The notes: generated by a model not told the origin, from the letters alone. A DNA stretch of 47,141 bases from Candidatus Omnitrophota bacterium (GCA_028748925.1 JAQTPE010000003.1:1-47141), one strand, 5' to 3'. Shown: positions 1,368-39,445, numbered from the stretch's first letter. Numbers and translations are program-made.

Positions 1368-2552
1368 ATGGAAGACAAGATAATAACTTTAAGAACCGGG
1401 AAGAAGGGCAAACTGAAGCCCGGACATCCCTGGATATTTAAGGGGCAGACCTTAAAAACCCCTCCCGGCATAAGGCCCGGCGATATAGTGACTATAGTTA
1501 ACGGTAGAGGCGAATTCACCGGCCGGGGTTACTATAATCCTGCCTCAGAGATCACCATCCGGCTCTTCACCTTTGATGATGAACCTATAGACGGGGCTTT
1601 TCTCCGGAATAGAATAGAAAGCGCTATAGCGAAGAGAGACTTCTTGTCCGGGCTCACCAATGCCGCGCGTCTGGTATTCAGCGAGGCGGACGGCCTGCCG
1701 GGGCTTATCGTAGATCGATACAACGAAACTATCGTATTCCAGGTATTCACTCTCGGCATCGAGCGCATGAAAGAGGGCCTGATTAAAATACTTGCGGATA
1801 TAGTGAATCCTAAATACATATATGAGAAGAGCGATTCGCCTTTCAGGAAGAAGGAGGGGCTCAAGACCATAAAGAAGTGGTGGCTCTACGAAGGTAAAAC
1901 GGATATAGAGATATATGAGGGCGATGCGAAATTCATAGTGGATATAGATAATGGGCATAAGACGGGATTCTATCTCGATCAGCGCAGATCGAGACTTGCC
2001 TTAAAAGATATCTCAACCGGCAAGTCGGTCCTCGACCTCTTCTGCTATACGGGAGGGTTTTCCATAAATGCCGCATTAGGGCTGGCCAAAAGAGTGGTGG
2101 GGGTGGATATAAAACAGAAGTGGCTTTCCCTGGCGCGTAAGAACGCGGAGATTAACGGCGTATCGGATGTGATTGAACATAGAGAAGGCGATGTATTTAA
2201 AATATTGAAGGATATTTGTGATTCCGGAGAAAAATTTGATATTATAGTGCTTGATCCCCCTTCATTCGCCAAAGATAAAAGGTCCATAATAACCGCGGCG
2301 AAGGGTTATAAAGAACTGAATACGCTTGCCATGAGAGCTCTTATCGACGGCGGGGTATTGTGCACATTTTCATGCTCTCATAGCATGTCGAATGAAATAT
2401 TTTCCGATATGATAAAGGCGTCGGCCTCCCAGGCCCGTAAAAGCTTAATGATCTTAAAGAGATGTCACCAGGATAAAGATCATCCTATAGTCAGGTCGAT
2501 ACCCCAGACTGAGTATTTAAAAGGACGCTTTCTTAAGGTAAATTCCATATGA
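1368..2552 (+). CDS. rlmI: class I SAM-dependent rRNA methyltransferase, RlmI-like (PUA + methyltransferase)
   Basis: 394 aa; N-terminal PUA-like region (KPGHPWIFKG), SAM motif I VLDLFCYTGGFS, motif IV IIVLDPPSF; length matches RlmI/YccW family. Confidence 0.75.
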   Translation: MEDKIITLRTGKKGKLKPGHPWIFKGQTLKTPPGIRPGDIVTIVNGRGEFTGRGYYNPASEITIRLFTFDDEPIDGAFLRNRIESAIAKRDFLSGLTNAARLVFSEADGLPGLIVDRYNETIVFQVFTLGIERMKEGLIKILADIVNPKYIYEKSDSPFRKKEGLKTIKKWWLYEGKTDIEIYEGDAKFIVDIDNGHKTGFYLDQRRSRLALKDISTGKSVLDLFCYTGGFSINAALGLAKRVVGVDIKQKWLSLARKNAEINGVSDVIEHREGDVFKILKDICDSGEKFDIIVLDPPSFAKDKRSIITAAKGYKELNTLAMRALIDGGVLCTFSCSHSMSNEIFSDMIKASASQARKSLMILKRCHQDKDHPIVRSIPQTEYLKGRFLKVNSI

Positions 2553-2568
2553 TTAACGCGGATAATAG

Positions 2569-3663
2569 ATGAGCAGTTCGAGTGGAGGTATCCTGAAAAA
2601 TTGTTTTTTAGCGATCATAGGCGTTATATCGGCGCTGCTTATAATGGAAGCCGGAGTCAGGATCAGGCAGTATGTGAAATACGGCACAGCCGCATCTTAT
2701 GCCGGAGGGCATATGGAAAAAGACCCCGGCTCCGGTCTGAATATACCCAGTCCGGGAACAGAAACAAGATCCTTAAAGATAAATTCACGTTCTTTTCGAG
2801 GGCCGGAACCGGAAGATCCTAAACCGGCAGATAGAATACGCATAGCTTTTCTGGGATCGTCGACCACTTTTTGCGCGGAAGTGAATGGTGAGGAGAAGAC
2901 CTGGCCGTATCTTGTATGGCGTGATCTTCAAAATGCATATCCGGGAATAAAAATGGATTATGTAAATGCGTCGGTGCCCGGATATTTGGTCTGGAAGGAT
3001 GTTATCAATTTAGAAAGACGCGTCAAACCTCTCCGGCCGGATATAATCATCATCTATGAAGGGCCCAATGATTTAAGCTGGTGGGCGAATGCGCTTGCCG
3101 GGAAACAGGGCAAAGAGATTTATAAGAACGGGTGGCTGGAAAAATATTCGCTCGCTTATGATATAATCAAAAAGAATTTTGTTATTTTTATTACCCAGCA
3201 AAAAGCAAAATCGGAAAGAGAGAGATTAAAATTTAAACCGGGTGAACTATCGGTAAATTTTCGAAAAGAATTGGCAGGGTTGATAGACGCCGCTAAAAGA
3301 ACGGCTCCGGTAGTGGTTATAGCCACTATCTCCTACAAGATGAGGCGCGAACAAACGGATGATGAGAAGCTCAGGAACGCGAATACGGCGCTCTTCTATA
3401 TGCCGTCTATGGGCCTGTCCGGACTGCTCGACGCCCATGAAGAATATAACCGTGTTATCCGCGAAACGGCAAAAGAAAAAGGCGTTATACTGGTGGACAA
3501 AGAGCTCATGATCCCGGGTGAGGACGCTTACTTCGAGGACTCGATCCATTTTTCCGCCAAAGGATGTGAATTGATGGCAAAGAGAGTGGTAGATTCTCTG
3601 TCCGGATCCGCGGAATTTAAAGATTTTTTGCGTTCACGCGGGCAAAAACAGATTAACTCATGA
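2569..3663 (+). CDS. membrane-anchored SGNH/GDSL-type hydrolase family protein
   Basis: 364 aa; N-terminal hydrophobic anchor; block I-like IAFLGSSTT and block V-like DSIHFS (DxxH); 4-nt overlap with next gene. Confidence 0.55.
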   Translation: MSSSSGGILKNCFLAIIGVISALLIMEAGVRIRQYVKYGTAASYAGGHMEKDPGSGLNIPSPGTETRSLKINSRSFRGPEPEDPKPADRIRIAFLGSSTTFCAEVNGEEKTWPYLVWRDLQNAYPGIKMDYVNASVPGYLVWKDVINLERRVKPLRPDIIIIYEGPNDLSWWANALAGKQGKEIYKNGWLEKYSLAYDIIKKNFVIFITQQKAKSERERLKFKPGELSVNFRKELAGLIDAAKRTAPVVVIATISYKMRREQTDDEKLRNANTALFYMPSMGLSGLLDAHEEYNRVIRETAKEKGVILVDKELMIPGEDAYFEDSIHFSAKGCELMAKRVVDSLSGSAEFKDFLRSRGQKQINS

Positions 3664-6329: not shown

Positions 6330-7157
6330 ATGATCACCATCGAGATCGATAAAAAGATATGCAATGGCGACGGAAAATGCGTAGAGATATGTCCGATACA
6401 TATCTTGAAGATGAATGAAAAAAAACGCATACCGGAATATATACCCGGCGGCGGGGATCTGTGCATTAATTGCGGCCAATGTTTCGCGTTCTGCCCGCCC
6501 GGTGCCATAAAGCTGTCCACGATGAGCGTGGAAGATTCCATGCCGTTAGATCATTCTAAACTACCGGGCGCGGAGCAGGTTGAGTTGTTTCTAAAAGGAA
6601 GGCGATCTGTGCGATTATATAAAGATACGCCGGTATCAAAAGAGTCGATAGATAAGCTTCTCGATATTGCCAGATACGCTCCGTCTGGGATCAACCGGCA
6701 GCCGGTCAACTGGGCGGTTGTTATGGGCAAAGACAAAGTCCGCGAACTGGGAGGCTTGGTTTCAAAATGGATGGAAGAACTCTTGAGCCAAAAGTCTCCA
6801 TTGGCGGAATCGCTCCATTTCGATCGCCTGGTCGAGTCCTGGAACAAGGGCGAAGACACGATATGCCGGGGTGCGCCCTGCATTGTCGTCGCCTATGGCC
6901 TCAAAGACGATCCTATGGTTCCGCAGTCATGCACGATCGCGGCGACATATCTTGAACTCGCGGCATTCGGTCTCGGATTCGGCGCATGCTGGGCAGGGTA
7001 TGTGAATATAGCGATCAATATGTCGGAGAGCGTGAGGAAATTTGCCGGTATGTCATCCCGCGCGACGGCAGGGGCTGTTATGATGATCGGATACCCGAAG
7101 TATCGTTATAGCCGGATACCTTCGCGCAATCCAGTCAGTGTAAGAATAAAAGATTAG
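6330..7157 (+). CDS. nitroreductase family protein with N-terminal 2x[4Fe-4S]-type ferredoxin domain
   Basis: 275 aa; CNGDGKCVEICP (CxxDxxCxxxCP, Asp replaces the second Cys) and canonical CINCGQCFAFCP, followed by a nitroreductase fold (RRSVRLY, PSGINRQP). Confidence 0.8.
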   Translation: MITIEIDKKICNGDGKCVEICPIHILKMNEKKRIPEYIPGGGDLCINCGQCFAFCPPGAIKLSTMSVEDSMPLDHSKLPGAEQVELFLKGRRSVRLYKDTPVSKESIDKLLDIARYAPSGINRQPVNWAVVMGKDKVRELGGLVSKWMEELLSQKSPLAESLHFDRLVESWNKGEDTICRGAPCIVVAYGLKDDPMVPQSCTIAATYLELAAFGLGFGACWAGYVNIAINMSESVRKFAGMSSRATAGAVMMIGYPKYRYSRIPSRNPVSVRIKD

Positions 7158-7218
7158 TGGCGCACCCTTGAATAGAGCGCCGCTATAAAGCTTTATATCA
7201 TGGAAGGGCAATTTTCTT

Positions 7219-7764
7219 ATGCGTAAATCAATCGATCTGAATATCGCGTACAGGCTTATAGGTTCCGGCCCGCTGGTGCTGGTGAGCTCGCTTTTGGATG
7301 GCAGGGCCGGGCTTACTCCTATAGCCTGGAACATGCCCGTATCGGATGAACCGCCGATAATTGCTTTGGAGATATGGGAAAAACACTTTATCTATAAAGC
7401 GATCCTGGAGACCGGTGATTTTGTAGTCAATATACCTTCCAGCGATATGGCAGAAACATGCAGGAAGCTCGGGAGCGTTTCAGGCGCAAAGGTGGATAAA
7501 TTCGGAGAGTTTGGTCTCGTGAAAGAAGAATCGAAAAAGATCAAATCCCCGCGTCTCGGATCTGCCATAGGCGTCCTGGAATGTAAGCTGCGCAGAGAGA
7601 AGGCCATTTTAGAAAAGTATAATATAGTGCTCGGAGATGTCGTATACGCTGAAGCTGAAGAGAGCGTATTTACCGACAGATGGGTCATCGAATCCGATGG
7701 GCCGCGCATCATGCATCACCTGGGCGGTAAACTGTTCTATGCTCCGGATAGAAGGATAATTTAA
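7219..7764 (+). CDS. flavin reductase-like (FMN-binding split-barrel) protein
   Basis: 181 aa; LVLVSS..GRAGLTPIAWNMPVS..PPII and GDFVVNIPS resemble the flavin reductase-like domain. Confidence 0.75.
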   Translation: MRKSIDLNIAYRLIGSGPLVLVSSLLDGRAGLTPIAWNMPVSDEPPIIALEIWEKHFIYKAILETGDFVVNIPSSDMAETCRKLGSVSGAKVDKFGEFGLVKEESKKIKSPRLGSAIGVLECKLRREKAILEKYNIVLGDVVYAEAEESVFTDRWVIESDGPRIMHHLGGKLFYAPDRRII

Positions 7765-7849
7765 CCGCCGGCTCTGTTTAAAAGTTACAATTTTGCCAAA
7801 ACGGCGCCATTTTCGGACAGTATGGCGCGAATGGAATAAGGAGAAAAAG

Positions 7850-8185
7850 ATGCCGCTAAGAACCGGTATAGTTATTATCGCCGTAATGTTGATGATGGCA
7901 GGAACAGCCATGCATTCTTATTCCGAAGATAGTTCCGGAGAAAATAGAACTATGACTATGCAAGGTAACGTCACCGCCATAGACTGGGTAGGTTCGGTTC
8001 TTACGGTAAACGATATGGTATTTTTCGTTCCATCGAATGTTAAAGTTGTGAAAGGGACCGATAGGATAAATTTTTCCGCTATTAATACAGGTGACAGCGT
8101 AAAGGTCACATATAGCAGAGAAAAGGATGGATCATTAAGGGTGTCCGATATCATTGTAGCCTATTCCGGCAGCTTTCCTGTTTAA
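7850..8185 (+). CDS. hypothetical exported protein
   Basis: 111 aa from ATG 7850 with AAGGAG 6 nt upstream; N-terminal hydrophobic signal; beta-rich C-terminus. Confidence 0.5.
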   Translation: MPLRTGIVIIAVMLMMAGTAMHSYSEDSSGENRTMTMQGNVTAIDWVGSVLTVNDMVFFVPSNVKVVKGTDRINFSAINTGDSVKVTYSREKDGSLRVSDIIVAYSGSFPV

Positions 8186-8225
8186 GATATCACCGTATAG
8201 ACCATCGCCTGTCGTCCGAAACGAA

Positions 8226-8254
8226 TTTACACCTGCCGTAAAATCTGTTATAAT
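8226..8254 (+). promoter_or_regulatory. sigma70-like promoter of the CxxC gene
   Basis: TTTACA (8226-8231), 17-nt spacer, TATAAT (8249-8254); part of a 38-nt block repeated at 14866-14903. Confidence 0.5.
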
Positions 8255-8282
8255 CGCGTAAAAACAGGGGAAAAGGAGTACT

Positions 8283-8750
8283 ATGAAAAAACATAAGAAG
8301 AGCAAAGATACGGGGGTCTCATCAATGATAGAACAGGACGTTGTCGGACTTTTGACGACGCTAGTCCAGAAACTTACATCTTTCGAAGCGAAGATCGATA
8401 TGGTCTATAGTAAACTGCAGGCGGCGCCTGTCGCTATGCAGCAGCAAAGACAGCCAATGCCGGTTCAGGCGCCGCAGGCACGGATCGACTCCAGGCCGAT
8501 GCATAAGGCGATATGCGCGGATTGTCACAAGGAATGCGAGGTGCCGTTCAGGCCGAGCGCGGACAGGCCTGTTTACTGCAAGAAGTGTTACGCGATGCGC
8601 AAGAATAACAGCGGCTTCAAGACGCATGGAAACGTAAGACAGACGAATCGGCCGACCGCGTCCCAGATCCCCGAAAAGCCGCAGGTTCCGGAGCCTGCGA
8701 AAGCCGTGAAACCTGCTAAGAAGAAACGTACAGCCAGGAAGAAGAAATAG
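8283..8750 (+). CDS. CxxC-x17-CxxC domain protein with Lys-rich tail
   Basis: 155 aa; CADC-(17 residues)-CKKC counted directly; C-terminal KPAKKKRTARKKK. Confidence 0.65.
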   Translation: MKKHKKSKDTGVSSMIEQDVVGLLTTLVQKLTSFEAKIDMVYSKLQAAPVAMQQQRQPMPVQAPQARIDSRPMHKAICADCHKECEVPFRPSADRPVYCKKCYAMRKNNSGFKTHGNVRQTNRPTASQIPEKPQVPEPAKAVKPAKKKRTARKKK

Positions 8751-8781
8751 CCGGCAGGGTTTCGTAAAATGAGGTGAAGCC

Positions 8782-9360
8782 ATGGCAGATGAAAAGAAAA
8801 GAACAAAAAACGGAAAAGAGATATTGGGGCATGACGAAGCTGCGGAGTTGTTCAAAGAATCCAATGCGCTGTACAGGGCCATACTCGATAACTTACAAGA
8901 CGCTGTTTATATACTTGATGCCAATGGCCGGTTTTTGCTGTGGAATAGTGTTTTTAACAAGGTAACTGGTTGCAGCGATGAGGAGATAAGCTCAAAGGTC
9001 CCCACAGATTTTATAGTCCCGGGAGACAGGAGTATACTGGCAGCGGCCATCACGGAGGTGTGGGAAACAGGGTTCGCTAAGGCGGAAGTGGGGGTCATTG
9101 CTAAAGATGGCTCATGCGCCATTTATGAATTTGCCAGTTCTTTACTCAAGGATTCCTCCGGGAGGATAGTGGGCCTGTGCGGCAGCGGCAGGGATACCAC
9201 CTTGCGCAAGAAGACGTTGGATGAATTACAGGACAAGATAGGACAGTTGAAAATATTTGCCAAGGCCGCGACCGGTAGAGAAATGCGAATGATAGAACTG
9301 AAGGAAAAAGTTAGAGAATTGGAAGAAAGACTAAAGGTTAAGGGTTCGTTCCAGAAGTGA
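8782..9360 (+). CDS. PAS domain protein with C-terminal coiled coil, no output domain
   Basis: 192 aa; YRAILDNLQDAVYILDANGRFLLWN PAS N-cap and core; heptad-like C-terminus. Confidence 0.7.
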   Translation: MADEKKRTKNGKEILGHDEAAELFKESNALYRAILDNLQDAVYILDANGRFLLWNSVFNKVTGCSDEEISSKVPTDFIVPGDRSILAAAITEVWETGFAKAEVGVIAKDGSCAIYEFASSLLKDSSGRIVGLCGSGRDTTLRKKTLDELQDKIGQLKIFAKAATGREMRMIELKEKVRELEERLKVKGSFQK

Positions 9361-9444
9361 ACAGACATGCGCCGGCGCCCCGCCTGAGGCGTGTTATAGG
9401 AACAGCGGCGGGACTGGCCATGAATAGTGTAATGCCGGGTTTAG

Positions 9445-9588
9445 GCTGGCGTAGCTCCCTACTTCGCAATCAACGTGTGGACCACAAAATGCTTCGTAGG
9501 GCAAGCAGTTGGCCGGTGTGTTTTGAGGTTTCAGAAGTTAGTAGACATAGGCTGGCGTAGCTCAGTTGGTAGAGCAGCGGTTTCGTAA
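9445..9588 (+). repeat. left 144-nt direct repeat (leader + tRNA-Thr positions 1-38)
   Basis: 139/144 identical to 14915-15058, no indels; the 5 differences are all transitions at 9483, 9488, 9509, 9517 and 9548. Confidence 0.9.
9551..9588 (+). pseudogene. truncated tRNA-Thr(CGU), 5' half only
   Basis: Identical to nt 1-38 of the complete tRNA at 15021-15096 (through anticodon loop TTCGTAA), then diverges. Confidence 0.85.
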
Positions 9589-9732
9589 TCGTACCCGACG
9601 AGAAATCGTAACCCACTGAATTCGCTGTAATTACAAGATTTGACAGATAGTTAGGTTAAAGTCACTATTTAGGTAACTTGAGGCATTTTGAGCGATTTAA
9701 ATAGCGTTATAGACACAAATTAGACACATACC

Positions 9733-9768
9733 GGGAGGGTCTTAAATAGCAAGGCTCTCCCATTTTTT
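9733..9768 (+). terminator. intrinsic terminator candidate downstream of the tRNA fragment
   Basis: GGGAGGGTCTT / AAGGCTCTCCC 11-bp stem (two G-U), 7-nt loop, then T6. Confidence 0.45.
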
Positions 9769-9814
9769 ATTTGTGTATCTACTGTACCCCTCTCTACGCA
9801 TAGACTAATTCTCC

Positions 9815-9843
9815 TTGTTGTTAGTTTCCAACCTTGCTATAAT
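9815..9843 (+). promoter_or_regulatory. promoter candidate upstream of the OLD-like gene
   Basis: TTGTTG, 17-nt spacer, TATAAT (9838-9843). Confidence 0.3.
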
Positions 9844-9899
9844 AGTCTCTCGATGGTGAGAATATGAGAATACACAAATATAGAGTTCTATTGATCGAG

Positions 9900-9926
9900 G
9901 CGTTAGATTAATTCTAACGCTTTTTT
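9900..9926 (+). terminator. intrinsic terminator/attenuator hairpin 15 nt before the OLD-like start
   Basis: GCGTTAGA-TTAAT-TCTAACGC perfect 8-bp stem followed by T6. Confidence 0.55.
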
Positions 9927-9941
9927 ATTGGAAAAATATCT

Positions 9942-11456
9942 ATGATAAATGCGTTAAAATTGAAAAATTACAGAGGAATAAAAGAAATTAAGCTCGAGGA
10001 GCTAGGCCACATTAACGTTATATGTGGGAAAAATAGTAGCGGAAAAACATCCCTTGTAGAAGCTATTTGTAATCCTAGCAATTGCATTTTTGGCATGAAA
10101 GTATCAGAACAAGAACACATTAATGAAATAGAAACAACATTTGAAATAATGGCCAAGAGATATACTACGCCAAACCCTGGCAGGACTATTCCATGGTTTA
10201 AAAATAAAATCAAAGAACTAATCAACCAAACTGTATTTATAGACGGATTAGATTCAATTCAACAGCGATGGGGCAATGAGTTTCATAAATGGATTAATCA
10301 TGGAGCAGATACTTTTAAGTTTAGTGAAATTATAAAGATTGCCATAAACAAGCATTCAGGAAATTTTAAACCAATTCTAATTCCCCCAAAACGAGTTTTT
10401 GACACACGTAGTACTATCTCCAATCTCGATCCTTCTATTTCCTCAGAAAATACCCGAATTTTAAACAGATTATTTGAGCTAGGTACTCAAGATGACAAAA
10501 GCCCAGAGTATAAACTTATTGAAACCATAAGAGTTGCATTTCGAGAAATCTCGAGTGGTTGCGAGTTTCATACTTCATTAAAAGGAAAGCACGTTGTTAT
10601 AAAATTTAAGAATGGTCAAGGCGATTGGATTGATGCTGATGCGAGTGGCCTTGGTTTAAGGGAAGTGCTAGTAATTCTTAGCTATCTATTAGATTCCGAC
10701 TATTCTATGATCTTAATTGAAGAGCCAGAAAATCATCTACATCCCGATATGCAACGAAGGCTGCTACAATTCTTTACTAAAGTCAAAGATAAACAATTAT
10801 TTTTAACAACCCACTCGAACATTTTTTTGGATTCTGCCTATATTGACAAAGCATTTTATTTGGAATTTAAAAATGGCGAAGTTACATGTTCTGATGAAAC
10901 ATCAAGAACTAATATACTGACGAATCTCGGGTATTCTACCGTAGATAATCTGGTTTCAGATTTAATTGTCTTCACGGAAGGTGTCCTAGACATACCTGTA
11001 ATCAGAGAGATCTGTAGTAAACTTGGTTTTTTGCATCAATTTAGTATTAAATTATACCCCTTAGGTGGTGATATAATGCACCATCTGGATTTATCAGTGT
11101 TCACAGAAAAAAGCAAGGTAATGGCAATCGTTGATTCAGATCCAGGTAGCCAAGTTATTCGGAATGAATTTGTTGATAAGTGTCATGCGAATAATATCCC
11201 GGTAACAAAGCTTGAAAAATACTCAACAGAGAATTATTTTTCTATCAGAGCGATAAAAGCGATTTATCCTCATCAGCAAATTCCAGCAACCATAACTATA
11301 TTGAATCCGAAGGTAAAAGTTAAAACGCAGCTAGGATTTAGCGTTAAGTCGAAAAGTAGAGAAATAGCCAAAGAGATGTCCTTGGAAGAATTTAAGGATA
11401 CAGATTTGCTCGAGTTCTGTAAAAGTATTCATAAAATATGTCTCGATGAAATTTAA
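9942..11456 (+). CDS. OLD-family / PARIS-merge-like nuclease: ABC-type ATPase fused to TOPRIM (DUF4435-like) domain
   Basis: 504 aa; Walker A GKNSSGKTS, signature-like SGLGLRE, Walker B MILIEEPENHLHP, H-loop TTHSN; C-terminal FTEGVLD ... AIVDSDPG ... STENYF resembles TOPRIM Glu, DxD and the ENY motif. Confidence 0.8.
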   Translation: MINALKLKNYRGIKEIKLEELGHINVICGKNSSGKTSLVEAICNPSNCIFGMKVSEQEHINEIETTFEIMAKRYTTPNPGRTIPWFKNKIKELINQTVFIDGLDSIQQRWGNEFHKWINHGADTFKFSEIIKIAINKHSGNFKPILIPPKRVFDTRSTISNLDPSISSENTRILNRLFELGTQDDKSPEYKLIETIRVAFREISSGCEFHTSLKGKHVVIKFKNGQGDWIDADASGLGLREVLVILSYLLDSDYSMILIEEPENHLHPDMQRRLLQFFTKVKDKQLFLTTHSNIFLDSAYIDKAFYLEFKNGEVTCSDETSRTNILTNLGYSTVDNLVSDLIVFTEGVLDIPVIREICSKLGFLHQFSIKLYPLGGDIMHHLDLSVFTEKSKVMAIVDSDPGSQVIRNEFVDKCHANNIPVTKLEKYSTENYFSIRAIKAIYPHQQIPATITILNPKVKVKTQLGFSVKSKSREIAKEMSLEEFKDTDLLEFCKSIHKICLDEI

Positions 11457-11707
11457 ATTTAGGTGCTAAAAACTATACATAGTATGTATTAACAGACGTT
11501 CTATTTAGGTACAGCCTACTGGGGTGTCACAAAGTAGGGCGTCTGCAAAAACTACATAAAACTACATAGAAGTATGGATATGCCGGAACATGTGTGGGTT
11601 ATAGAAATCAGTTGGCCCGACTTATTCTGTCATGGACGAAAAAAATGTGGTGAAATAATTATTGATTCTACAGCTGATGCAGACTTTATTAGTTATGATA
11701 GTTGAAA

Positions 11708-11759
11708 AGGGACGGTTCTATTTTTTACCCATTTAAACAGGACCATACCTATTTATTCC
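11708..11759 (+). repeat. copy A of a ~55-nt hairpin-containing repeat (degenerate)
   Basis: Shares AGGGACGGTTCTATTT and AAACAGRACCATMCCTATTTATT..CC with 12649-12706. Confidence 0.5.
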
Positions 11760-11766
11760 GAATCTA

Positions 11767-11970
11767 TTATCCAACACTACTTTCCTTGACGTAAATTGCA
11801 AAAGTATTACCCTTTAGCTTTATTCCATATATTTGTGACTTTGGGATCCAAGATTTATTGCCGTTGTCTATCAGTATAGCTTTATCGGTCTCGTGTATGA
11901 TCCGTATCTGTACCCAGATACGCTTTTCTTGAGGATAGATAATATTGCGAATACTAAATGGCATATTCAC
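11767..11970 (-). CDS. hypothetical 67-aa protein translationally coupled to the receiver gene
   Basis: GTG 11970 overlaps the upstream TGA (GTGA); in-frame ATG at 11964; beta-rich sequence with KAILIDNGNKSWIPKSQI; no family recognised. Confidence 0.5.
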   Translation of the reverse strand: MNMPFSIRNIIYPQEKRIWVQIRIIHETDKAILIDNGNKSWIPKSQIYGIKLKGNTFAIYVKESSVG

Positions 11971-12317
11971 AGCTTTGCTATCGTCTCATTCAACTTGCTC
12001 ATGGAAAACGGCTTTGCCATATAATAATCAGCCCCTAAGCGCATAGCCTCTTTTTTATCTTCCTCCAGTGCTGAGCCCGTAATAATTATAATTATGCATG
12101 AAGGCCTTACGCTTTTAACCTTTTTTAATACCTCCAGCCCAAACATATCTTTTAAGCATAGGTCGAGTATGACTATGCTGGGCTTCTCAAGAGTAAAAGC
12201 ATCCAAACCGCCTTGACCTGTTAGGGCATAGATAACCTCATAGCCCATATTACCGAAGAAATCCTTTATCATTTCGCATATATCTATCTCATCATCTATT
12301 ACTAATATTTTAGCCAT
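11967..12317 (-). CDS. stand-alone response-regulator receiver (CheY-like) protein
   Basis: 116 aa; DD pair (VIDDE), phospho-acceptor Asp in VILDLCL, T in IIITGS, K in MAKPF. Confidence 0.85.
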   Translation of the reverse strand: MAKILVIDDEIDICEMIKDFFGNMGYEVIYALTGQGGLDAFTLEKPSIVILDLCLKDMFGLEVLKKVKSVRPSCIIIIITGSALEEDKKEAMRLGADYYMAKPFSMSKLNETIAKL

Positions 12318-12322
12318 AATAA

Positions 12323-12420
12323 ATATCCTCTTTTGGGATATTTTATTATACGTAATATAAGGAAAAAGTCAATATAAATATATCCTAATTTGGGATATTA
12401 TTTATCCTATGATAGGATAT
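12323..12420. promoter_or_regulatory. divergent control region with three 19-bp palindromic operators WTATCC-N7-GGATAT
   Basis: Sites 12323-12341, 12380-12398 and 12402-12420. Minus-strand promoter TTGACT (12372-12367), 16-nt spacer, TATAAT (12350-12345) reads into site 1. Sites 2/3 overlap the plus-strand candidate TTGGGA-17-TAGGAT. Confidence 0.6.
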
Positions 12421-12424
12421 TATC

Positions 12425-12640
12425 GTGAAAACGATATACTCGAAAGAATATAAGGACGTGTTGTTTAAGCTCAAAAAGGCCAGAAAAAAGGCGGGACTTA
12501 CCCAGGTGGACATAGCTAAACTATTAGATAAGCCCCAGTCTTTTGTATCTAAGATAGAGAATGGGGAAAGAAGGCTTGACGTAATAGAGCTGAAGCATAT
12601 AGCTAAATTATATAAGATTGATACGAAAGATCTGCTGTAG
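12425..12640 (+). CDS. XRE-family helix-turn-helix transcriptional regulator
   Basis: 71 aa, GTG start; GLTQVDIAKLLDKPQSFVSKIENGERR is a textbook Cro/C1 HTH. Confidence 0.85.
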   Translation: MKTIYSKEYKDVLFKLKKARKKAGLTQVDIAKLLDKPQSFVSKIENGERRLDVIELKHIAKLYKIDTKDLL

Positions 12641-12648
12641 TAGTCAAT

Positions 12649-12706
12649 AGGGACGGTTCTATTTAGATGGACAAGAAACAGAACCATCCCTATTTATTTT
12701 TATTCC
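12649..12706 (+). terminator. copy B of the repeat; terminator of the XRE gene
   Basis: GGGACGGTTCT (12650-12660) / AGAACCATCCC (12680-12690), 11-bp stem with one C-A mismatch, then a T-rich tail. Confidence 0.5.
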
Positions 12707-12760
12707 AATATGATAGGCTGGCACCGAAAGGACTGTCCCCGATAATTGCAAAACAAAAAC

Positions 12761-12793
12761 TTGACTTCTGGCAAGATGTTAAGTATACTTAAC
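12761..12793 (+). promoter_or_regulatory. promoter with a perfect 16-bp palindrome over the -10 box
   Basis: TTGACT (12761-12766), 17-nt spacer, TATACT (12784-12789); GTTAAGTATACTTAAC (12778-12793) is its own reverse complement. Confidence 0.55.
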
Positions 12794-12819
12794 GATTGTT
12801 AAGGAGACTTAAGATAGCC

Positions 12820-13455
12820 ATGACTGTAGAGAAGAGATTGGACGATATTCTAAATACCAAATCAAAGGTTAAAATAATACGCCTTTTTATCTCAAAAGGG
12901 AGTGAATTTATGGCATCCGGCAGTGATGTCGCAAAATCAGTTGGCCTTACTCCTCCAGCTATCCATGCCTCCTTAAAAGAGCTATACGACCAGAATGTAT
13001 TGCGTCGGGACATAGTAGGCAAGCAACATATCTATAGATTAAACACATCAGGTCGCATTGTTAGGGAAATCTTAAAACCGGCCTTTCAAAAAGAACATTC
13101 AATAAAGGAAGATATAAGTAATTTTTTAATTAAGAAGATAAACGATTGCGGGGTTGCCGGAAACATAAAGTCTTTAATACTTTATGGTAGTCTTGCGCGA
13201 GGTGAAACCCACAATACCAGCGATTGCGATATTGCTATTATTGTCAAGGATTCGCAGTCTAAGAAGAAGGTAGAAGATGTATTTGTAGAGAAGATTTCAT
13301 TCGAATTCTCCGAATATTTCGGGCTATCGCTTGACGCCTACATAAAGACATGCGATGAATTCATAAGTCGTATGAAAAGAAATCTTTCGCCCGTGCCCAG
13401 TCTTATGAAATCATACATAGTGATTTACGGTAAAGACCCGATAGACTATAGGTAA
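12820..13455 (+). CDS. winged-HTH + minimal nucleotidyltransferase (MNT) protein, antitoxin-like
   Basis: 211 aa from ATG 12820 (track opens at TTG 12796); N-terminal wHTH-like region; LYGSLARGETHNTSDCDIAII = GSxxRG..x..DxD nucleotidyltransferase motif. Confidence 0.8.
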   Translation: MTVEKRLDDILNTKSKVKIIRLFISKGSEFMASGSDVAKSVGLTPPAIHASLKELYDQNVLRRDIVGKQHIYRLNTSGRIVREILKPAFQKEHSIKEDISNFLIKKINDCGVAGNIKSLILYGSLARGETHNTSDCDIAIIVKDSQSKKKVEDVFVEKISFEFSEYFGLSLDAYIKTCDEFISRMKRNLSPVPSLMKSYIVIYGKDPIDYR

Positions 13456-13456
13456 T

Positions 13457-13861
13457 ATGGCTCCGAAAAATATAAAAATAAAGCACGAAGATAAATCCGG
13501 CGCTAAGGATTTCCTCAAGAAGGCCGAAGATAACTATATCCAGATGCTTGCGGCCTTGAATACGGGAAACTTCAACGCTGCAGGAACACTCGCTCTCCAA
13601 TGCTCAATCTCATCCGCGGATGCCATATGTGTGCATGAAAAAGGCGTTCGCTCTGTGTCTGATGACCATTTAGACGTATGTGACCTGGTAAGCCCTTTAC
13701 CGGTGCCGGATGCCAAGGAAAAAGCGAATATTCTTAGACGGGTTATCAGAAAGAAAAATCTTATTCAATATGAAAGACGTAATATATTTCAGTCAGAGGC
13801 CGAAGAAATAGTAAAAGCCGCCACCCGATTTTATCAATGGGTTGCAGCACAGGTTCAATAG
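13457..13861 (+). CDS. HEPN domain protein, toxin-like partner of the MNT
   Basis: 134 aa; starts 1 nt after the MNT stop; all-helical; candidate R-x5-H motif RSVSDDH. Confidence 0.7.
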   Translation: MAPKNIKIKHEDKSGAKDFLKKAEDNYIQMLAALNTGNFNAAGTLALQCSISSADAICVHEKGVRSVSDDHLDVCDLVSPLPVPDAKEKANILRRVIRKKNLIQYERRNIFQSEAEEIVKAATRFYQWVAAQVQ

Positions 13862-13960
13862 TCATGAGATTTCGGAAAACATAGGATAGTTTCATGGACG
13901 GTCCATAAAGTGCCACTCCACAAAGTGACACCCTCCCGTAGTTTGTGATGTAATTACCTC

Positions 13961-14194
13961 ATGTCAAAATCACCAGTACCAAAAATCCGTTTAGAAAAAA
14001 GAGCCGGGAAGTTCGTCACTGTCATAGCGGGCCTGCATACTTATGGATCCGGCCGGCTGAATGCAATGGCCAGGGAGTTAAAGTCTATCCTTGCGGCCGG
14101 GGGAACGGTCAAAAACGGAACGATCGAGATCCAGGGCGACAAAGTAGAGCTTATTAAAGCCTGGTTTATCAAAACTAACTCCACATTATCTTAA
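13961..14194 (+). CDS. SUI1/eIF1 (YciH)-family translation factor homologue, short form
   Basis: 77 aa; KFVTVIAGL ... GGTVKNGTIEIQGDKVELIKAW matches the SUI1 core; no obvious RBS. Confidence 0.75.
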   Translation: MSKSPVPKIRLEKRAGKFVTVIAGLHTYGSGRLNAMARELKSILAAGGTVKNGTIEIQGDKVELIKAWFIKTNSTLS

Positions 14195-14339
14195 AATAAC
14201 GCCATATCAATCCCCAAAATACTCACTCAAATAAATTAAGAAAAAAATAGTCAGTTATTCTTTGCAACAATTTCGCCGCTTTTTCCGTCTTATAGTATAG
14301 GGGAACATAACGCCTATATATAGGCAGGAAGGGATATCC

Positions 14340-14858
14340 ATGAAAGAACTGATTACGCAAGAGGTTATTGAAGCGGGAATTTTTATTGTTAGGGGGCATA
14401 AGGTAATGCTAAGCACTCACTTGGCAGATCTTTATGATGTAGAAGCAAAGGTGTTAATCCAGGCGGTTAAAAGGAATATGGATAGATTCCCGAAAGATTT
14501 CATATTTCAATTAACAGAAGATGAATACAAAATCTTGAAGTCACAATTTGTGACTTCAAGTTGGGGAGGTATTAGACGCGCTAATCCATATGCCTTCACT
14601 GAGCAAGGAGTTGCCATGCTCTCAAGCGTTCTTAATAGCAAAAGAGCCGTGCAGGTCAATATTGCAATAATGCGTGCTTTTGTAAGACTTAGAGATGTTC
14701 TTTCTAACCGTAAAGAACTTACCTACAAATTAAAAGAGCTTGAGAGTAAAATTGAAAAACATGATGCTGATATACAAACAATCTTTGAGGCCATACGCCA
14801 ACTCATGGCCCCTCCACCTGAAAAGCCCCGACGCATGATAGGTTTTAAACAGGAGTGA
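14340..14858 (+). CDS. ORF6N (KilA-N-like) domain DNA-binding protein
   Basis: 172 aa; [43 protein letters not shown] and [32 protein letters not shown] are typical ORF6N blocks. Confidence 0.8.
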
Positions 14859-14874
14859 TAGAGCTCGAAACGAA

Positions 14875-14903
14875 TTTACACTCATCATAAAATCTGCTAT
14901 AAT
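14875..14903 (+). promoter_or_regulatory. sigma70-like promoter driving the leader + tRNA-Thr
   Basis: TTTACA, 17-nt spacer, TATAAT (14898-14903); the -10 box ends 12 nt before the right repeat begins; 32/38 identical to 8217-8254. Confidence 0.5.
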
Positions 14904-14914
14904 TCCATTAACAA

Positions 14915-15058
14915 GCTGGCGTAGCTCCCTACTTCGCAATCAACGTGTGGACTACAAGATGCTTCGTAGGGCAAGCAGCTGGCCGGCGTGTTTTGAGGTT
15001 TCAGAAGTTAGTAGACACAGGCTGGCGTAGCTCAGTTGGTAGAGCAGCGGTTTCGTAA
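14915..15058 (+). repeat. right 144-nt direct repeat (leader + 5' part of the intact tRNA-Thr)
   Basis: See 9445-9588. Confidence 0.9.
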
Positions 15059-15096
15059 ACCGCAGGTCGATGGTTCAACTCCATTCGCCAGCTCCA
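15021..15096 (+). tRNA. tRNA-Thr (anticodon CGU), CCA encoded
   Basis: Acceptor GCTGGCG/CGCCAGC, D stem GCTC/GAGC, anticodon stem GCGGT/ACCGC with loop TTCGTAA, T arm GATGG-TTCAACT-CCATT. Confidence 0.9.
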
Positions 15097-15274: not shown

Positions 15275-16039
15275 GTGATTGTGGGCGCTAAAAAATATAT
15301 TTTGCGTAATAGAGCAAAAAATGGATCCGTCACCAATAATCTTTCTGGGAATCTCCGGCGGGTACTGCGACGAAACCGTAACGGCAAAAGAGCTAAGGTC
15401 CTGCGCAGTTTTTTTAAGACCGGACCCGGAGAATACGCCGAAGGCGATATCTTCTTAGGCGTCACAACGCCGGTATTAAGAAAACTCGCGGCGCGGTTCA
15501 AAGATATAGAATTAAAGTCATCGGTCGAATTATTAAGATCTTCTATCCACGAAGAGAGGTTGCTTGCCCTCCTCATCCTTATCCTTAAATATCGCGGCTC
15601 AAATGAAGAGAATAAAAAAAAGATCTACCGTATATATCTCGAGAACTGCGGATACATAAATAACTGGGATCTTGTGGATGTTACAGCCAAGCATATAGTG
15701 GGGGATTACCTGCGCGATAAAGACAGAGGTGTTCTATATGATCTGGCAAGATCCCCTTTGCTTTGGGATAGAAGGATAGCCATTATTTCGACATTCTATT
15801 TTATAGAGAACCGCCAATTTGATGACACTATAAGGATAGCAGGGCTCTTATTGTCGGATAAGCACGACCTTATCCATAAAGCGGTAGGATGGATGCTTAG
15901 AGAGGTGGGCAAACGGGATTTAGAGGCGGAAGAGCGGTTCCTGAAAAAGAATCATACGGCGATGCCCAGGACGATGCTTCGTTACGCCATAGAAAAATTT
16001 CCGGAGCGTAAAAGACGAAGATATTTAAATAAGGTATAA
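15275..16039 (+). CDS. DNA alkylation repair (AlkD-like HEAT-repeat) family protein
   Basis: 254 aa, GTG start uncertain; RSFFKTGPGEYAEGDIFLGVTTPVLRKLA and HKAVGWMLRE match this family. Confidence 0.75.
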   Translation: MIVGAKKYILRNRAKNGSVTNNLSGNLRRVLRRNRNGKRAKVLRSFFKTGPGEYAEGDIFLGVTTPVLRKLAARFKDIELKSSVELLRSSIHEERLLALLILILKYRGSNEENKKKIYRIYLENCGYINNWDLVDVTAKHIVGDYLRDKDRGVLYDLARSPLLWDRRIAIISTFYFIENRQFDDTIRIAGLLLSDKHDLIHKAVGWMLREVGKRDLEAEERFLKKNHTAMPRTMLRYAIEKFPERKRRRYLNKV

Positions 16040-27659: not shown

Positions 27660-28617
27660 GAATAATCCGTTAATAGTTTCCGTGGGGCCGCATATGCGCG
27701 CCAAGATTTCTACAAGAAGTATTATGTGGACGGTCAATCTGGCCCTGTTACCGGCCGGCGCGGCGGGTGTATTTATATTCGGGATCCATTCGCTCTATGT
27801 GATAGCGGTATCAGTCCTTTCGGCCGTAGTTACCGAATGGGCTATTCTATCTTTCAGAAAAAAGGAGATAGTTATTTTTGACGGCAGCGCTGTCCTTACA
27901 GGATTATTACTGGCATATAATCTTCCGCCCGGAGTTCCTTTATGGCTTCCCGCCGCAGGTTCGTTCTTCGCGATAGCGATAGGCAAGCAGGTCTTCGGCG
28001 GCCTCGGTCACAATATATTTAATCCCGCGCTGGCGGGGAGAGCATTCCTGATGGTCTCCTGGCCTGTATATATGACTACATGGCAGAATCCCAGATGGCA
28101 GGTGGACGCAATAACTACCGCTACGCCTCTGGCGCTGCTCAAACATAGCCAATTCGACCTTTTGAAGGGTACGACTTATATGGATCTCTTTTTAGGCAAC
28201 CGCGGTGGTTGCATTGGAGAAGTCTGCATCGCGGCTCTTCTCATAGGGGCGGCATATCTATTTTTGAAAAAATATATAACCTGGCACATACCGTTAACAT
28301 ATATATCTTCAGTCGCTTTTTTAAGTCTGGCCTTTAACGGGCCGGGAGGCCTATTCACCGGCGACGCGCTCTTCTTTGTGCTTTCCGGCGGACTTGTGCT
28401 TGGCGCGTTATTTATGGCGACCGATTATGTGACGAGCCCTTTGAGCAATAAGGGCAAGATAATATTCGGTATCGGCTGCGGCGTATTGACTTTTGTTATC
28501 AGAAAATTTTCCGGATATCCTGAGGGTACCTCATACGCGATACTTATAATGAACGCATTCGTTCCCGTGATAGACAGGTTTACATATCCGAAATGGTTTG
28601 GTTGGAGGAAAAAATGA
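27658..28617 (+). CDS. rnfD: Rnf complex subunit D
   Basis: 319 aa polytopic membrane protein; MATDYVTSP FMN-attachment region. Confidence 0.92.
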   Translation: MNNPLIVSVGPHMRAKISTRSIMWTVNLALLPAGAAGVFIFGIHSLYVIAVSVLSAVVTEWAILSFRKKEIVIFDGSAVLTGLLLAYNLPPGVPLWLPAAGSFFAIAIGKQVFGGLGHNIFNPALAGRAFLMVSWPVYMTTWQNPRWQVDAITTATPLALLKHSQFDLLKGTTYMDLFLGNRGGCIGEVCIAALLIGAAYLFLKKYITWHIPLTYISSVAFLSLAFNGPGGLFTGDALFFVLSGGLVLGALFMATDYVTSPLSNKGKIIFGIGCGVLTFVIRKFSGYPEGTSYAILIMNAFVPVIDRFTYPKWFGWRKK

Positions 28618-29156
28618 ATCAATTGTTAAAATTTGGACTGGTCCTCGGAGTGATATGCCTGGCGGCCACGCTTGTGTTGGCTGTGACATATGAGGTTACA
28701 AAGCCCAAGATCGAGGAACAGCTTAAAGCTGAAGAGCAGAGCGCCTTAAAATCGATAATGCCGTCGGCGGACTCCTTTGTCGAAAAGACTCTGGACGGAA
28801 TAGAATATTTCGAAGCGCTTAAAGGCAGGACGGTTGCCGGATATTGCGTAAGAGTTACGGGAAACGGGTACAACGGACCTATAAGGATGATAGCGGGTGT
28901 GGATTTAGACGGCACCATTGAGGGGGTCTCTGTCCTGGAGAATAGCGAGACTCCGGGACTTGGCGCCAAGATAAACGAGATAAGGCCCGGTGAGAGCGAG
29001 CCGTGGTTTCTTAAGCAGTTTAAGGGCAAGTCCGCCGGTACCATAGCTATCAAGAGTAATATAGACGCGATAACCGGAGCGACGATCTCAAGCAAGGCCG
29101 TCACGGACGCCATACGTAAAACTGTGGACGATCTATTGGGCAAATTAAAGAAATAG
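28614..29156 (+). CDS. rnfG: Rnf complex subunit G
   Basis: 180 aa from ATG 28614 (ATGA overlap with rnfD, GGAGG 5 nt upstream); FMN-binding DAITGATISSKAV. Confidence 0.9.
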   Translation: MNQLLKFGLVLGVICLAATLVLAVTYEVTKPKIEEQLKAEEQSALKSIMPSADSFVEKTLDGIEYFEALKGRTVAGYCVRVTGNGYNGPIRMIAGVDLDGTIEGVSVLENSETPGLGAKINEIRPGESEPWFLKQFKGKSAGTIAIKSNIDAITGATISSKAVTDAIRKTVDDLLGKLKK

Positions 29157-37652: not shown

Positions 37653-38222
37653 ATGGTCGGTCATAATGCCGCAATTCTTATATACCGGAACGCATTAGCG
37701 CTATTCTGCGCAGCTGGTATAACCGTATCTCCGGCCGCAATATCAAAAGAGACGCCTCTCCCAAAACCATCATTGTCAATAAGCCTTCCCGGAGAGAGGA
37801 CCTATACATTTTCAAAGACGGAATTATGGCGTTATTTGAGAGCGGGTATAAATTATCTTGAAGTCTCGGGCAGGGATGTCCCTGTTTATTATAAACATCC
37901 CGGCGGAAAGGCTTACGGTCCGCTGGCATTAACGCCCATAGCCGTTAAAGATGTAAAACTTCATTACCCGCAATTGTCGGCTTATACGTTTGATAACGTG
38001 TTGTCGGATCATGAGCTCTATGAGAAATTCGCCGCGGCCTACGCCGAACTTCTCCTGAAACATTATCTTAAGATCGATTATTTCGGTATGACTAAAGAGG
38101 ATGTTTTTGAGGCGCTCCAGAAAGGATGGTTTCTCGGTCCGACTCTCTATAAGAAAGGCCATCCTGTTATAATTTCCCGCCAAAAACGGGCCGCCGAATA
38201 TATCCGGTCAATGAGTGTTTGA
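37653..38222 (+). CDS. hypothetical exported protein downstream of the riboswitch (weak lytic-transglycosylase-like motif)
   Basis: 189 aa; hydrophobic N-terminus; LEVSG ... YGPLALTPIAV loosely resembles the ES...GLMQLMP pattern of SLT domains; function not established. Confidence 0.6.
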   Translation: MVGHNAAILIYRNALALFCAAGITVSPAAISKETPLPKPSLSISLPGERTYTFSKTELWRYLRAGINYLEVSGRDVPVYYKHPGGKAYGPLALTPIAVKDVKLHYPQLSAYTFDNVLSDHELYEKFAAAYAELLLKHYLKIDYFGMTKEDVFEALQKGWFLGPTLYKKGHPVIISRQKRAAEYIRSMSV

Positions 38223-38291: not shown

Positions 38292-38383
38292 GGAGAGGTC
38301 GCCTAGTGGCCTAGGGCGGCGGTTTGCTAAACCGCTATATGGGTAATACCGTATCGAGAGTTCAAATCTCTCCCTCTCCGCCA
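38292..38383 (+). tRNA. tRNA-Ser (anticodon GCU), long variable arm, CCA encoded
   Basis: Acceptor GGAGAGG/CCTCTCC, anticodon stem GCGGT/ACCGC with loop TTGCTAA, ~20-nt variable arm, T arm GAGAG-TTCAAAT-CTCTC. Confidence 0.9.
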
Positions 38384-38440
38384 TTTTTACTTTATTTTAT
38401 CTGGTTAGAAATGAGTTTTTGTGATATATTTGTTTAAGAT

Positions 38441-38830
38441 ATGATACTGCATAATCGCAAAGGATTTACTCTCGCGGATATTATTTTAATCCTGATAGTG
38501 GTCGCTATAATGGCGGTATCGGGACTGGGTTTTTATTCATTGCTCTTTCAGCAACAGCAGAGGATCGTTCAGCAGATGACGGGCATAAATCTGGTGATGG
38601 CGCAGATAGAGGACCTGCTTGCCGAAGATTATAGCGCGGACGACCTGTTGCAAGGAAACAACAAAACTCCTACAATAAGTCCCATACCGGATGGGTATAC
38701 ATCCACTTCCTACACCGTAGAAGACCGAACTTATAACGGAATGTCATACAAGCGGATAACCGCGACGACGACTACTCCCGCTCCGGTATCGAGAACAATT
38801 CAACTGATAGGGTTCAAGGTGGACCAATGA
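38441..38830 (+). CDS. prepilin-type N-terminal domain (pilin/pseudopilin-like) protein
   Basis: 129 aa; NRKGFTLADIILILIVVAIMAV = class III signal-like G/FTL with Asp at +5, followed by a hydrophobic helix. Confidence 0.65.
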   Translation: MILHNRKGFTLADIILILIVVAIMAVSGLGFYSLLFQQQQRIVQQMTGINLVMAQIEDLLAEDYSADDLLQGNNKTPTISPIPDGYTSTSYTVEDRTYNGMSYKRITATTTTPAPVSRTIQLIGFKVDQ

Positions 38831-39231
38831 CAGCCAAATATTCCAAAAAAGGCTTTATCAGTATATTCTGGATAGCGGTGATGATGCTTATTACGACCGC
38901 GATCATGGTAACAGCCACATATATGTTCAGCACCTTTGCCGCAACTCCTGCTGAACAGCTATTGGTTCCGCTCCAGAATTACTATAACGCTGAATTCGGG
39001 ATATCATATGGAAATTTTAAAATTCCCACAGATCCGAACATAGTAAACCTATTTCAAAACTCAAGCTATACATATAATATCCCTTCCGCTATTATCGGGG
39101 CCGATCTTACCGTCACTATCACACGTCTTCATCCCGATGGATCGCCTAAACTTTATACGATTAGATCCACCGCAAATAACAGGATTATCACCGCTACCTG
39201 GAATAACGGCATCCTTACCCAGATAAATTAA
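38827..39231 (+). CDS. pilin-like hypothetical protein (atypical, no acidic +5)
   Basis: 134 aa; SKKGFISIFWIAVMMLITTAIMV; 4-nt overlap with the previous gene. Confidence 0.45.
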   Translation: MTAKYSKKGFISIFWIAVMMLITTAIMVTATYMFSTFAATPAEQLLVPLQNYYNAEFGISYGNFKIPTDPNIVNLFQNSSYTYNIPSAIIGADLTVTITRLHPDGSPKLYTIRSTANNRIITATWNNGILTQIN

Positions 39232-39364
39232 TCCTTAACGCTTGCCAAAGAAATTGTTTCGTGTTATACTTTGATAATACAATAGTTATTTTATTATATT
39301 GCATAGGGGTTATCTTTATATAATCTTAAATGTTAAAGCGAAACTGGATTAAAATATCGCTCAA

Positions 39365-39407: not shown

Positions 39408-39445
39408 ATGCCCATTATTTCTACTCTGTATATCGAAAAGGAGGA

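Follow-up and report, generated by a model that had tools for sequence, protein, structure and literature searches.

In the Islander collection of islands found in tRNA genes, 3760 of the 3919 entries are marked by a 3' fragment of the target gene (tDNA) and 159 by a 5' fragment (PMC4383910; Hudson, Lau & Williams 2015). Two placements relative to the intact gene are explicitly allowed there, upstream for a 5' fragment and downstream for a 3' fragment, and of the two classes of attP site tabulated the one at the anticodon is the commoner (2083/3919; PMC4383910). The locus described here, a candidate island in the tRNA-Thr(CGU) gene at positions 9445-15058 of a 47,141-nt stretch of DNA (JAQTPE010000003.1, the whole of which is called the window), follows the upstream layout. 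A full tRNA gene and a fragment in the same orientation enclose the island, the fragment being a 5' one that lies 5.4 kb upstream of the intact gene; the crossover sublocation is the anticodon loop, the alternatives being the T-loop and the 3' end; the length is within 2-200 kb, the composition is foreign and the gene is restored by the island. A tyrosine integrase in or overlapping the island, which Islander demands, is absent. Unlike the islands of that collection, the block of identity in the window reaches 106 nt past the 5' end of the tRNA (the corresponding repeat in a second genome is 335 nt long), the leader so included starts with tRNA positions 1-13, and the host belongs to an uncultivated lineage. 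An earlier note on this DNA had placed duplication of the 5' half of the gene outside the classical pattern; with 159 of 3919 islands in Islander, it is a minority pattern but a catalogued one.

Similar layouts have been described elsewhere. In Klebsiella, integrases of clade I.d put islands upstream of tRNA-Arg (arg2), and a D-loop sublocation is reported (bioRxiv 10.1101/2020.11.02.365908). The window island likewise lies upstream of its target tRNA, and the 13-mers described below end at the boundary of D-stem and D-loop, resembling that sublocation. The Klebsiella islands, however, carry an integrase and the main junction in the window is at the anticodon loop; the likeness is one of layout. 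Islands with dusA-specific integrases are described by Farrugia et al. (2015, PMC4482086) as entering at the 5' end of their target gene. That system differs in having a protein gene as its target, from another target family, and in the presence of the integrase. An element that inserts in this manner has to furnish its target gene with a fresh 5' end and with signals for its expression.

Cis-mobilisable elements (CIMEs) of streptococcal integrative and conjugative elements have att-like direct repeats and cargo, and no integrase or transfer genes. The window island resembles them in being flanked by att-like sequences and in holding cargo only, without recombination or transfer genes, but no cognate autonomous element with its ends was found in the sequences read. 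It also resembles defence islands and variable hotspots beside tRNA genes in its clustered systems, with ATPase-Toprim, MNT-HEPN and PDC-S05 families in the window as against a type II restriction-modification (RM) system in a sister strain, and differs from them in its boundaries, which are repeats derived from the tRNA in the upstream layout.

The 5'-fragment upstream configuration is thus uncommon but known, and the novelty of the locus is modest; its unusual details are the block of identity extending beyond the gene, the leader starting with tRNA positions 1-13 and the persistence of the site as a defence hotspot. It offers a clean case, documented by comparison, of the minority mode, which obliges an element to bring along both a promoter and the gene's 5' portion, and it indicates that such a site can persist without an integrase as a strain-variable hotspot of defence genes. 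Tools that require an integrase, or that seek 3' fragments alone, would overlook a locus of this kind. The current understanding of integrative elements is otherwise unchanged.

Results

The tRNA-Thr(CGU) gene and its repeat

The window contains one tRNA-Thr(CGU) gene, at 15021-15096 on the plus strand (found by ARAGORN, and by the Rfam tRNA model with 70.8 bits). It is preceded and partly covered by the right, attR-like copy (14915-15058) of a 144-nt direct repeat whose left, attL-like copy (9445-9588) is in the same orientation, the island measuring 5470 nt from start to start. The repeat finder gave 97% identity for the two copies. Comparison base by base gave 139 identical positions of 144 and five differences, all of them transitions (left/right: 9483/14953 C/T, 9488/14958 A/G, 9509/14979 T/C, 9517/14987 T/C and 9548/15018 T/C). 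These lie at repeat positions 39, 44, 65, 73 and 104, all of them 5' of the last 38 nt, which in both copies are tRNA-Thr positions 1-38 (9551-9588 on the left). The figures of the earlier note for the repeat and its upstream transitions are therefore borne out, as is its statement that only the right copy runs on into a complete tRNA.

Identity breaks off behind tRNA position 38, with which the anticodon loop ends, exactly at the 3' edge where it had been placed before. The bases that follow are TCGTACCC in the left copy and ACCGCAGG, the 3' side of the anticodon stem, in the right copy; those that precede the repeat are ..GGGTTTAG and ..CATTAACAA respectively, and because the bases differ between the copies on both sides, both edges of the repeat are sharp. 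The left copy reads on past position 38 as TCGTACCCGACG, giving a junction signature of tRNA-Thr(CGU) positions 1-38 followed by TNGNNCCCGACGNNAAATCGTAAC. No 3'-half fragment of tRNA-Thr was found elsewhere in the window. The interior is visibly richer in AT, in agreement with the earlier note, the GC profile being about 35% inside as against 45-50% outside: GC is 0.35-0.36 at 9.5-12.5 kb and 0.40-0.43 at 13-15 kb, with flanks of 0.45-0.51.

A more distant relative (contig L092) has one leader followed by one intact tRNA-Thr with nothing between them, so that the single-copy state exists. Its leader consists of the 13-mer, a hairpin and a GC-rich palindromic insert, and the approximately 35 nt in front of it are homologous to window 9411-9444, which stand directly ahead of the left copy on the plus strand and are identical in contig L084 of a close strain. 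This shared flank indicates that the leader is native to the tRNA locus and that the left copy in the window has kept its native upstream context. The displaced piece is thus the native leader with the 5' half of the gene, as had been proposed.

Promoters and ends of the island

The right copy has its own promoter, TTTACA-17-TATAAT with an upstream TG, at 14866-14903 on the plus strand; its core (14875-14903) is the promoter already recognised in the earlier note, and it matches 11 of 12 consensus positions and recurs at the right end of the island in the second genome. A second promoter of the same form (TTTACA-17-TATAAT, again 11/12) precedes the zf-PAS operon in the left flank, at 8217-8254 on the plus strand. 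The two are paralogous, 8217-8254 and 14866-14903 forming a 38-nt repeat with 84% identity, and among 96 loci compared the motifs AAAATCTGNTATAAT and AAAATCTG-N-TATAAT occur only at the zf-PAS promoter and at island right ends. The zf-PAS promoter is probably the native tRNA promoter. No separate strong promoter lies in front of the left leader copy, and the native tRNA may for this reason once have been co-transcribed with zf-PAS. Furthermore, the 84% likeness of the island promoter to the adjacent zf-PAS promoter suggests that a host of this lineage was at one time the source from which the module that restores the tRNA was copied.

At the left end, the sequence following the truncated tRNA (9589-9740, plus strand) is non-coding and conserved, with TCGTA repeats and two GACACA repeats, and is a candidate recombination arm. 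It is homologous to positions 1491-1640 of L093, a stretch of the second genome, where it also follows a tRNA 5' fragment, and the motif CCCGACGNNAAATCGTAAC was found solely at left junctions of the window/L093 type. A terminator-like hairpin at 9733-9771 (plus strand) is predicted to stop transcripts leaving the truncated tRNA.

The same architecture in a second genome

A 60-kb contig of a different genome (Ga0233425_10001189) was read in two stretches, L093 and L091. L093 has two tandem leader units of 151 nt and then the 5' part of the tRNA, ending at position 38. Gapless identity reaches only to about position 29, where a GC-rich palindromic insert of about 47 nt splits this fragment; beyond the fragment comes sequence homologous to window 9589-9740 over some 150 nt. 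In L091 the two leader units lead into an intact tRNA, and its promoter, about 110 nt upstream, shares AAAATCTG-N-TATAAT with window 14889-14903. The L091 and L093 copies share a 335-nt repeat with 94% identity. The visible cargo is different, comprising a B12-binding-domain protein and a transglutaminase-like protein. By comparison of sequences, therefore, the second genome appears to have the same architecture and homologous non-coding ends with other cargo. Homologues obtained in a search aimed at the island interior were at most 62% identical, and their contigs (L097 and L098) are unrelated to the locus; a distant homologue of one cargo protein bears the NCBI label Candidatus Omnitrophota.

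Downstream of the intact tRNA in L091, in addition, 21 nt of the tRNA 3' end recur without a mismatch (1442-1462 and 1607-1627, 165 nt apart). This repeat has the form of a classical 3'-fragment scar, and an Abi_2 gene follows it (1960-2847, minus strand). Both sides of the tRNA-Thr gene appear to serve as insertion sites in this genome.

The leader, its 13-mer and its hairpin

The first 13 nt of the 106-nt leader are identical to tRNA positions 1-13, GCTGGCGTAGCTC. This 13-mer occurs four times in the window (at 9445, 9551, 14915 and 15021), where 0.05 matches would be expected by chance, and since it stands at the start both of the leader and of the tRNA, the repeat unit can be written as [tRNA 1-13] + 93 nt + [tRNA 1-38]. 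The copies that start leader units are at 9445-9457 and 14915-14927 in the window, at 6674-6686 in L092, at 1080 and 1233 in L091 and at 1094 and 1245 in L093, and are exact in every unit; in the second genome the units, of 151-153 nt, are tandemly doubled with their boundaries at the 13-mer. The earlier view of a plain leader is thus replaced by that of a sequence which starts with tRNA 1-13, is native to the locus and is doubled in one relative. The 13-mers may be the scars of older integrations at the D-arm or, alternatively, microhomology that seeded copying.

Within the 93-nt part lies a hairpin, CTACTTCGC..GCTTCGTAG, at 9459-9499 and 14929-14969. It is flanked by GTAG on both strands and is present in each leader unit. 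In L091 the same hairpin is found at 835-876, 1094-1132, 1247-1285 and 1678-1721 (minus strand), so that copies outside the leader units stand ahead of the island promoter and, in inverted orientation, beyond the tRNA. Its inner stem is GCA..TGC in the window and L092 and GCT..AGC in L091 and L093, a compensatory change. To judge from its sequence, the hairpin looks like a repetitive extragenic palindrome (REP); no further GTAG-flanked copy was seen elsewhere in the window. A Y1 (HUH) transposase would be expected if such hairpins belonged to IS200/IS605 elements or to REP-associated tyrosine transposases (RAYTs), and six-frame Pfam comparison found no Y1_Tnp in the island. A Y1_Tnp (IS200-like) gene was seen only in a distant relative, L086, adjoining its PAS gene.

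GC-rich palindromic inserts (..CCTTCG..GGCTTCGGA..GTCCCGAGC..) break up the displaced tRNA fragment and the leaders. They are found at L093 1421-1467, in the leaders of L092 and L091, at L086 1300-1390 and at L084 2570-2620, and also recur in intergenic DNA of the relatives.

Other identities for the leader were rejected. It has no Rfam match at E <= 1 that would make it a known RNA, and its predicted fold is not significant, either alone (z-score -0.49) or together with the tRNA (-1.84). In local alignment with the tRNA 5' half the leader scores no higher than shuffled sequence does, and its origin as a decayed copy of that half is left as speculation only.

Variation between strains

Public data contain little from this organism: among 5.8 billion sequences the PAS protein has only 3 relatives. 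Exact matches to the PAS, ATPase, HEPN and major facilitator superfamily (MFS) proteins were found by protein look-ups only in short contigs of the same strain, and the exact AlkD protein gave no match with either of two start codons tried. A scan of genome contigs for AlkD-like proteins gave 80 loci of at most 62% identity from many phyla, none of them with this tRNA. A homologue search with PAS yielded four proteins in all, and in the distant ones (L086 and L088) no tRNA-Thr follows the PAS gene. Scanning metagenomes for the 17-mer GCTGGCGTAGCTCCCTA followed by YT gave six loci; in viral contigs nothing was found with the leader, the double 13-mer or the attL junction.

A sister strain is represented by L090 and L096 (JGI) and L095 (ENA). 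To the right of window position 13888 its contigs are 98-99.8% identical to the window through the SUI1 and ORF6N genes, the promoter, leader and tRNA, and the AlkD, MFS and V-ATPase genes. To the left of 13888 they contain instead an R.Pab1-type endonuclease, an Eco57I-like methylase, two small proteins and an N6_N4 methylase, and the ATPase, response-regulator, helix-turn-helix (HTH) and MNT-HEPN genes of the window are absent. Since RM genes replace the ATPase-to-HEPN genes at 98-99% identity, the left cargo varies between strains. The locus behaves as a defence-gene hotspot: near-identical strains have different cargo over the left 4.4 kb and keep the SUI1-ORF6N-promoter part and the repeats. 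The earlier note had taken the approximately 5.4 kb as one island unit. Movement of the 5.4 kb as a single unit is not supported, only the part left of 13888 being replaced in a strain that is 98-99% identical. The right repeat of L095 was considered as a mosaic of the two window copies, such as gene conversion would give, and this was rejected, 3 differences in 144 nt being close to the ordinary strain divergence of 1-1.5%.

A further contig (L084) from the same ENA assembly as L095 (ERZ27247363) matches window 7007-9461 at 98% and leaves homology directly after the 17-mer GCTGGCGTAGCTCCCTA; its stretch 2439-3208, which corresponds to window 9445 onwards, carries an HTH_17 (excisionase-type) gene. 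This departure point implies that in that strain the start of the leader is itself a junction, and the island of the L084/L095 strain may be bounded by 17-nt repeats only.

The 17-mer followed by T also occurs at 1474-1492 of L094 (WNFR01114456.1), a GC-rich contig otherwise unlike the window. This could be chance or another junction.

Search for a recombinase

The earlier note had recognised no recombinase in any frame, and comparison with profile models gave the same result. Pfam found no Phage_integrase (PF00589), Resolvase, Recombinase or transposase domain in the annotated open reading frames (ORFs) of the island, no recombinase appeared when a six-frame translation of 9361-15096 with stops masked was compared with Pfam, and none appeared in comparison of the island with PHROGs. 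Over the whole window, 36 of the 47 ORFs of at least 150 aa were scanned and gave no recombinase, the large ones outside the island being housekeeping genes, e.g. for Rnf, enolase and secretin/T2SSE. The other 11 were the genes of a V-type ATPase operon (identified from the Pfam families of locus L002), three short ORFs (28593-29156, 41718-42305 and 42302-42787) and frames that overlap genes among the 36.

Origin of the locus

On balance, 9445-15058 is probably, with appreciable room for doubt, a non-autonomous (integrase-less) or decayed island in tRNA-Thr(CGU) in a mirror-image configuration. The comparative data from sequence support an island origin. The crossover point would be the anticodon loop. 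The island would sit upstream of the functional gene and bring a promoter, a leader and tRNA positions 1-38, the chromosome contributing positions 39-76 of the gene so formed. The native leader and 5' half, together with their upstream flank, would have been displaced 5.4 kb leftwards, where the terminator would stop transcription into them. Since the edge of identity is the edge of the loop, and anticodon-centred sites are the commoner Islander class, a tyrosine-type integrase acting at the anticodon stem-loop may have made the junction originally, and would since have been lost or now act in trans. At the present day the island may be lost or exchanged without a dedicated recombinase, homologous recombination between the 144-nt repeats or within the conserved flanks being enough.

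Several observations weigh against this account of an integrase-made island. No cognate integrase was seen anywhere in the data read, the island interior of the second genome lying outside them. There is no clear inverted copy of the anticodon stem to the right of the attL crossover, and a core-type binding site is consequently not evident. The empty site that the earlier note proposed to look for, with PAS, one leader with the tRNA, and AlkD in succession, is shown by no close-strain contig, the single-copy state being that of the more distant L092. The SUI1-ORF6N part diverges between strains as core DNA does. Because both genomes share the position-38 junction as well as homologous left ends, they would record one ancestral event and not two insertions. 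Finally, the repeat copies match each other within each genome in lineage-specific features (number of units, inserts), which fits in-situ copying or exchange within a species better than a distant donor.

It is possible, if rather unlikely, that no site-specific recombinase was involved and that the locus arose from a cassette, in which a captured promoter, leader and 5' half, on a circle or a donor segment, entered by RecA-dependent exchange, either of the Campbell type or through the flanks. The edge at position 38 would then be merely the end of the captured copy. Such exchange would be served by the length of the homology, 144 nt in the window and as much as 335 nt in the second genome, and is consistent with the lineage-matched repeat copies, with the absence of an integrase and with the exchange of just part of the island between strains; the paralogy of the island promoter with the host zf-PAS promoter also suggests capture from this lineage. 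It leaves unexplained, however, why the copy should end exactly at the edge of the loop, as is typical of site-specific tDNA islands, and why the left end is conserved over about 150 nt where the neighbouring sequence is otherwise unalignable.

On a broader and equally doubtful view, cargo cassettes free of integrase would form a family in an uncultivated lineage, possibly Omnitrophota. One end of each would be a portable module of promoter, leader and tRNA(1-38), the other the conserved arm of approximately 150 nt. The cassettes would insert or swap defence genes upstream of tRNA-Thr, using either homologous recombination within the long tRNA-derived module or a hijacked recombinase encoded elsewhere; the leader units that begin with the 13-mer would be accumulated scars.

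Alternatively, the repeat could have formed locally, by a microhomology-mediated duplication between the GCTGGCGTAGCTC repeats with later entry of foreign DNA into one copy. The repeat does start exactly at the 13-mer, the units of L091 and L093 are doubled at 13-mer boundaries, and the right-hand interior genes behave as core DNA. Nevertheless, this course of events is improbable: the window has no other fragment of the tRNA 3' half, so that a full second tRNA was not simply interrupted; the conserved ends and element-borne promoter found with other cargo in the second genome mark a defined element; and L092 has the single-copy state.

An assembly artefact, in which a misjoin at the 144-nt repeat would have united a truly empty chromosome with a 5.47-kb circle carrying promoter, leader and 5' half, is very improbable: short-read contigs from SRR22315508 do break within the repeat, L001 stopping at 9474 and L003 beginning at 9559, so that for this strain only the window's own assembly links the two sides of the repeat, but the promoter, leader, intact tRNA and AlkD gene are contiguous in two independent sister-strain assemblies (JGI and ENA), the five differences between the copies let assemblers phase the repeats, and both types of junction are on one 60-kb contig of another genome. 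In support of the island, its junctions have been assembled independently, the run from the tRNA 5' half into the left end in the Logan contig L003 and that from the promoter through leader and tRNA to AlkD in the JGI and ENA contigs.

Gene content of the island and its flanks

The defence and toxin-antitoxin cargo reported in the earlier note is reflected in matches to Pfam and PADLOC families, and varies between strains. The matches that indicate defence-type clustering are to the ATPase-Toprim_I-B/AriA/GajA-like, PDC-M05A and PDC-S05 families (PADLOC) and to HEPN (Pfam), and are to be read as matches to families. To the left of the island, the chromosomal flank ends with a PAS-domain gene (8782-9360, plus strand; Pfam PAS_4/PAS) that is 98% identical in L084 and L085.

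The first gene of the island encodes an ABC-type ATPase of 504 aa with a Toprim-like C-terminal part (9942-11456, plus strand; Pfam AAA_21, AAA_15). The PADLOC model ATPase-Toprim_I-B matches residues 5-477, the AriA, GajA and NsnB models match as well, and from these likenesses the protein is a candidate OLD/GajA/AriA-like defence nuclease. A two-gene unit on the minus strand (11767-12317) follows, consisting of a response-regulator receiver protein (11967-12317; Pfam Response_reg, 8.6e-23) and its 67-aa partner (11767-11970; phrog_8389). Between this operon and the divergent gene for an XRE-type HTH regulator (12425-12640, plus strand; Pfam HTH_3) are three copies of a 20-nt palindrome, ATATCC-N8-GGATAT (12323-12421), which are probably operators for the regulator. 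The next two genes, both on the plus strand, encode an MNT-like nucleotidyltransferase (12796-13455; Pfam NTP_transf_2/Polbeta, PADLOC PDC-M05A) and the HEPN protein with which it pairs (13457-13861; Pfam HEPN), and would form a toxin-antitoxin or defence pair.

The right part of the island (13888-14914, plus strand), common to L090 and L095, contains genes for a SUI1-domain protein of 77 aa (13961-14194, plus strand; Pfam SUI1) and an ORF6N protein (14340-14858, plus strand; Pfam ORF6N, PADLOC PDC-S05 at 5e-58, PHROGs anti-repressor), and then the promoter. Beyond the tRNA, the right chromosomal flank begins with an AlkD-like DNA alkylation repair gene (15275-16039, plus strand; Pfam DNA_alkylation, 1e-61).

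Further observations

No second tRNA-linked island was found in the window, the 5' and 3' fragments of tRNA-Phe, tRNA-Met and tRNA-Ser forming no direct repeats. After tRNA-Ser, the region 38292-40000 has a GC of 0.40-0.42, and there are two ORFs without a Pfam match in this vicinity, at 37653-38222 (before the tRNA) and at 39446-40186; no direct tRNA-Ser fragment was found, and there is thus nothing to indicate an island there.

Relatives of the ORF6N protein are common in viral contigs, none of which carries the tRNA motif. Upstream of the ORF6N gene, a 48-nt stretch (14261-14307) is 90% identical to L086 1453-1500, which precedes the Y1 transposase gene of that contig, the coding DNA of L086 being only about 75% identical to the window. 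The 48-nt stretch could represent a promoter common to both genes or, alternatively, an upstream module that is mobile.

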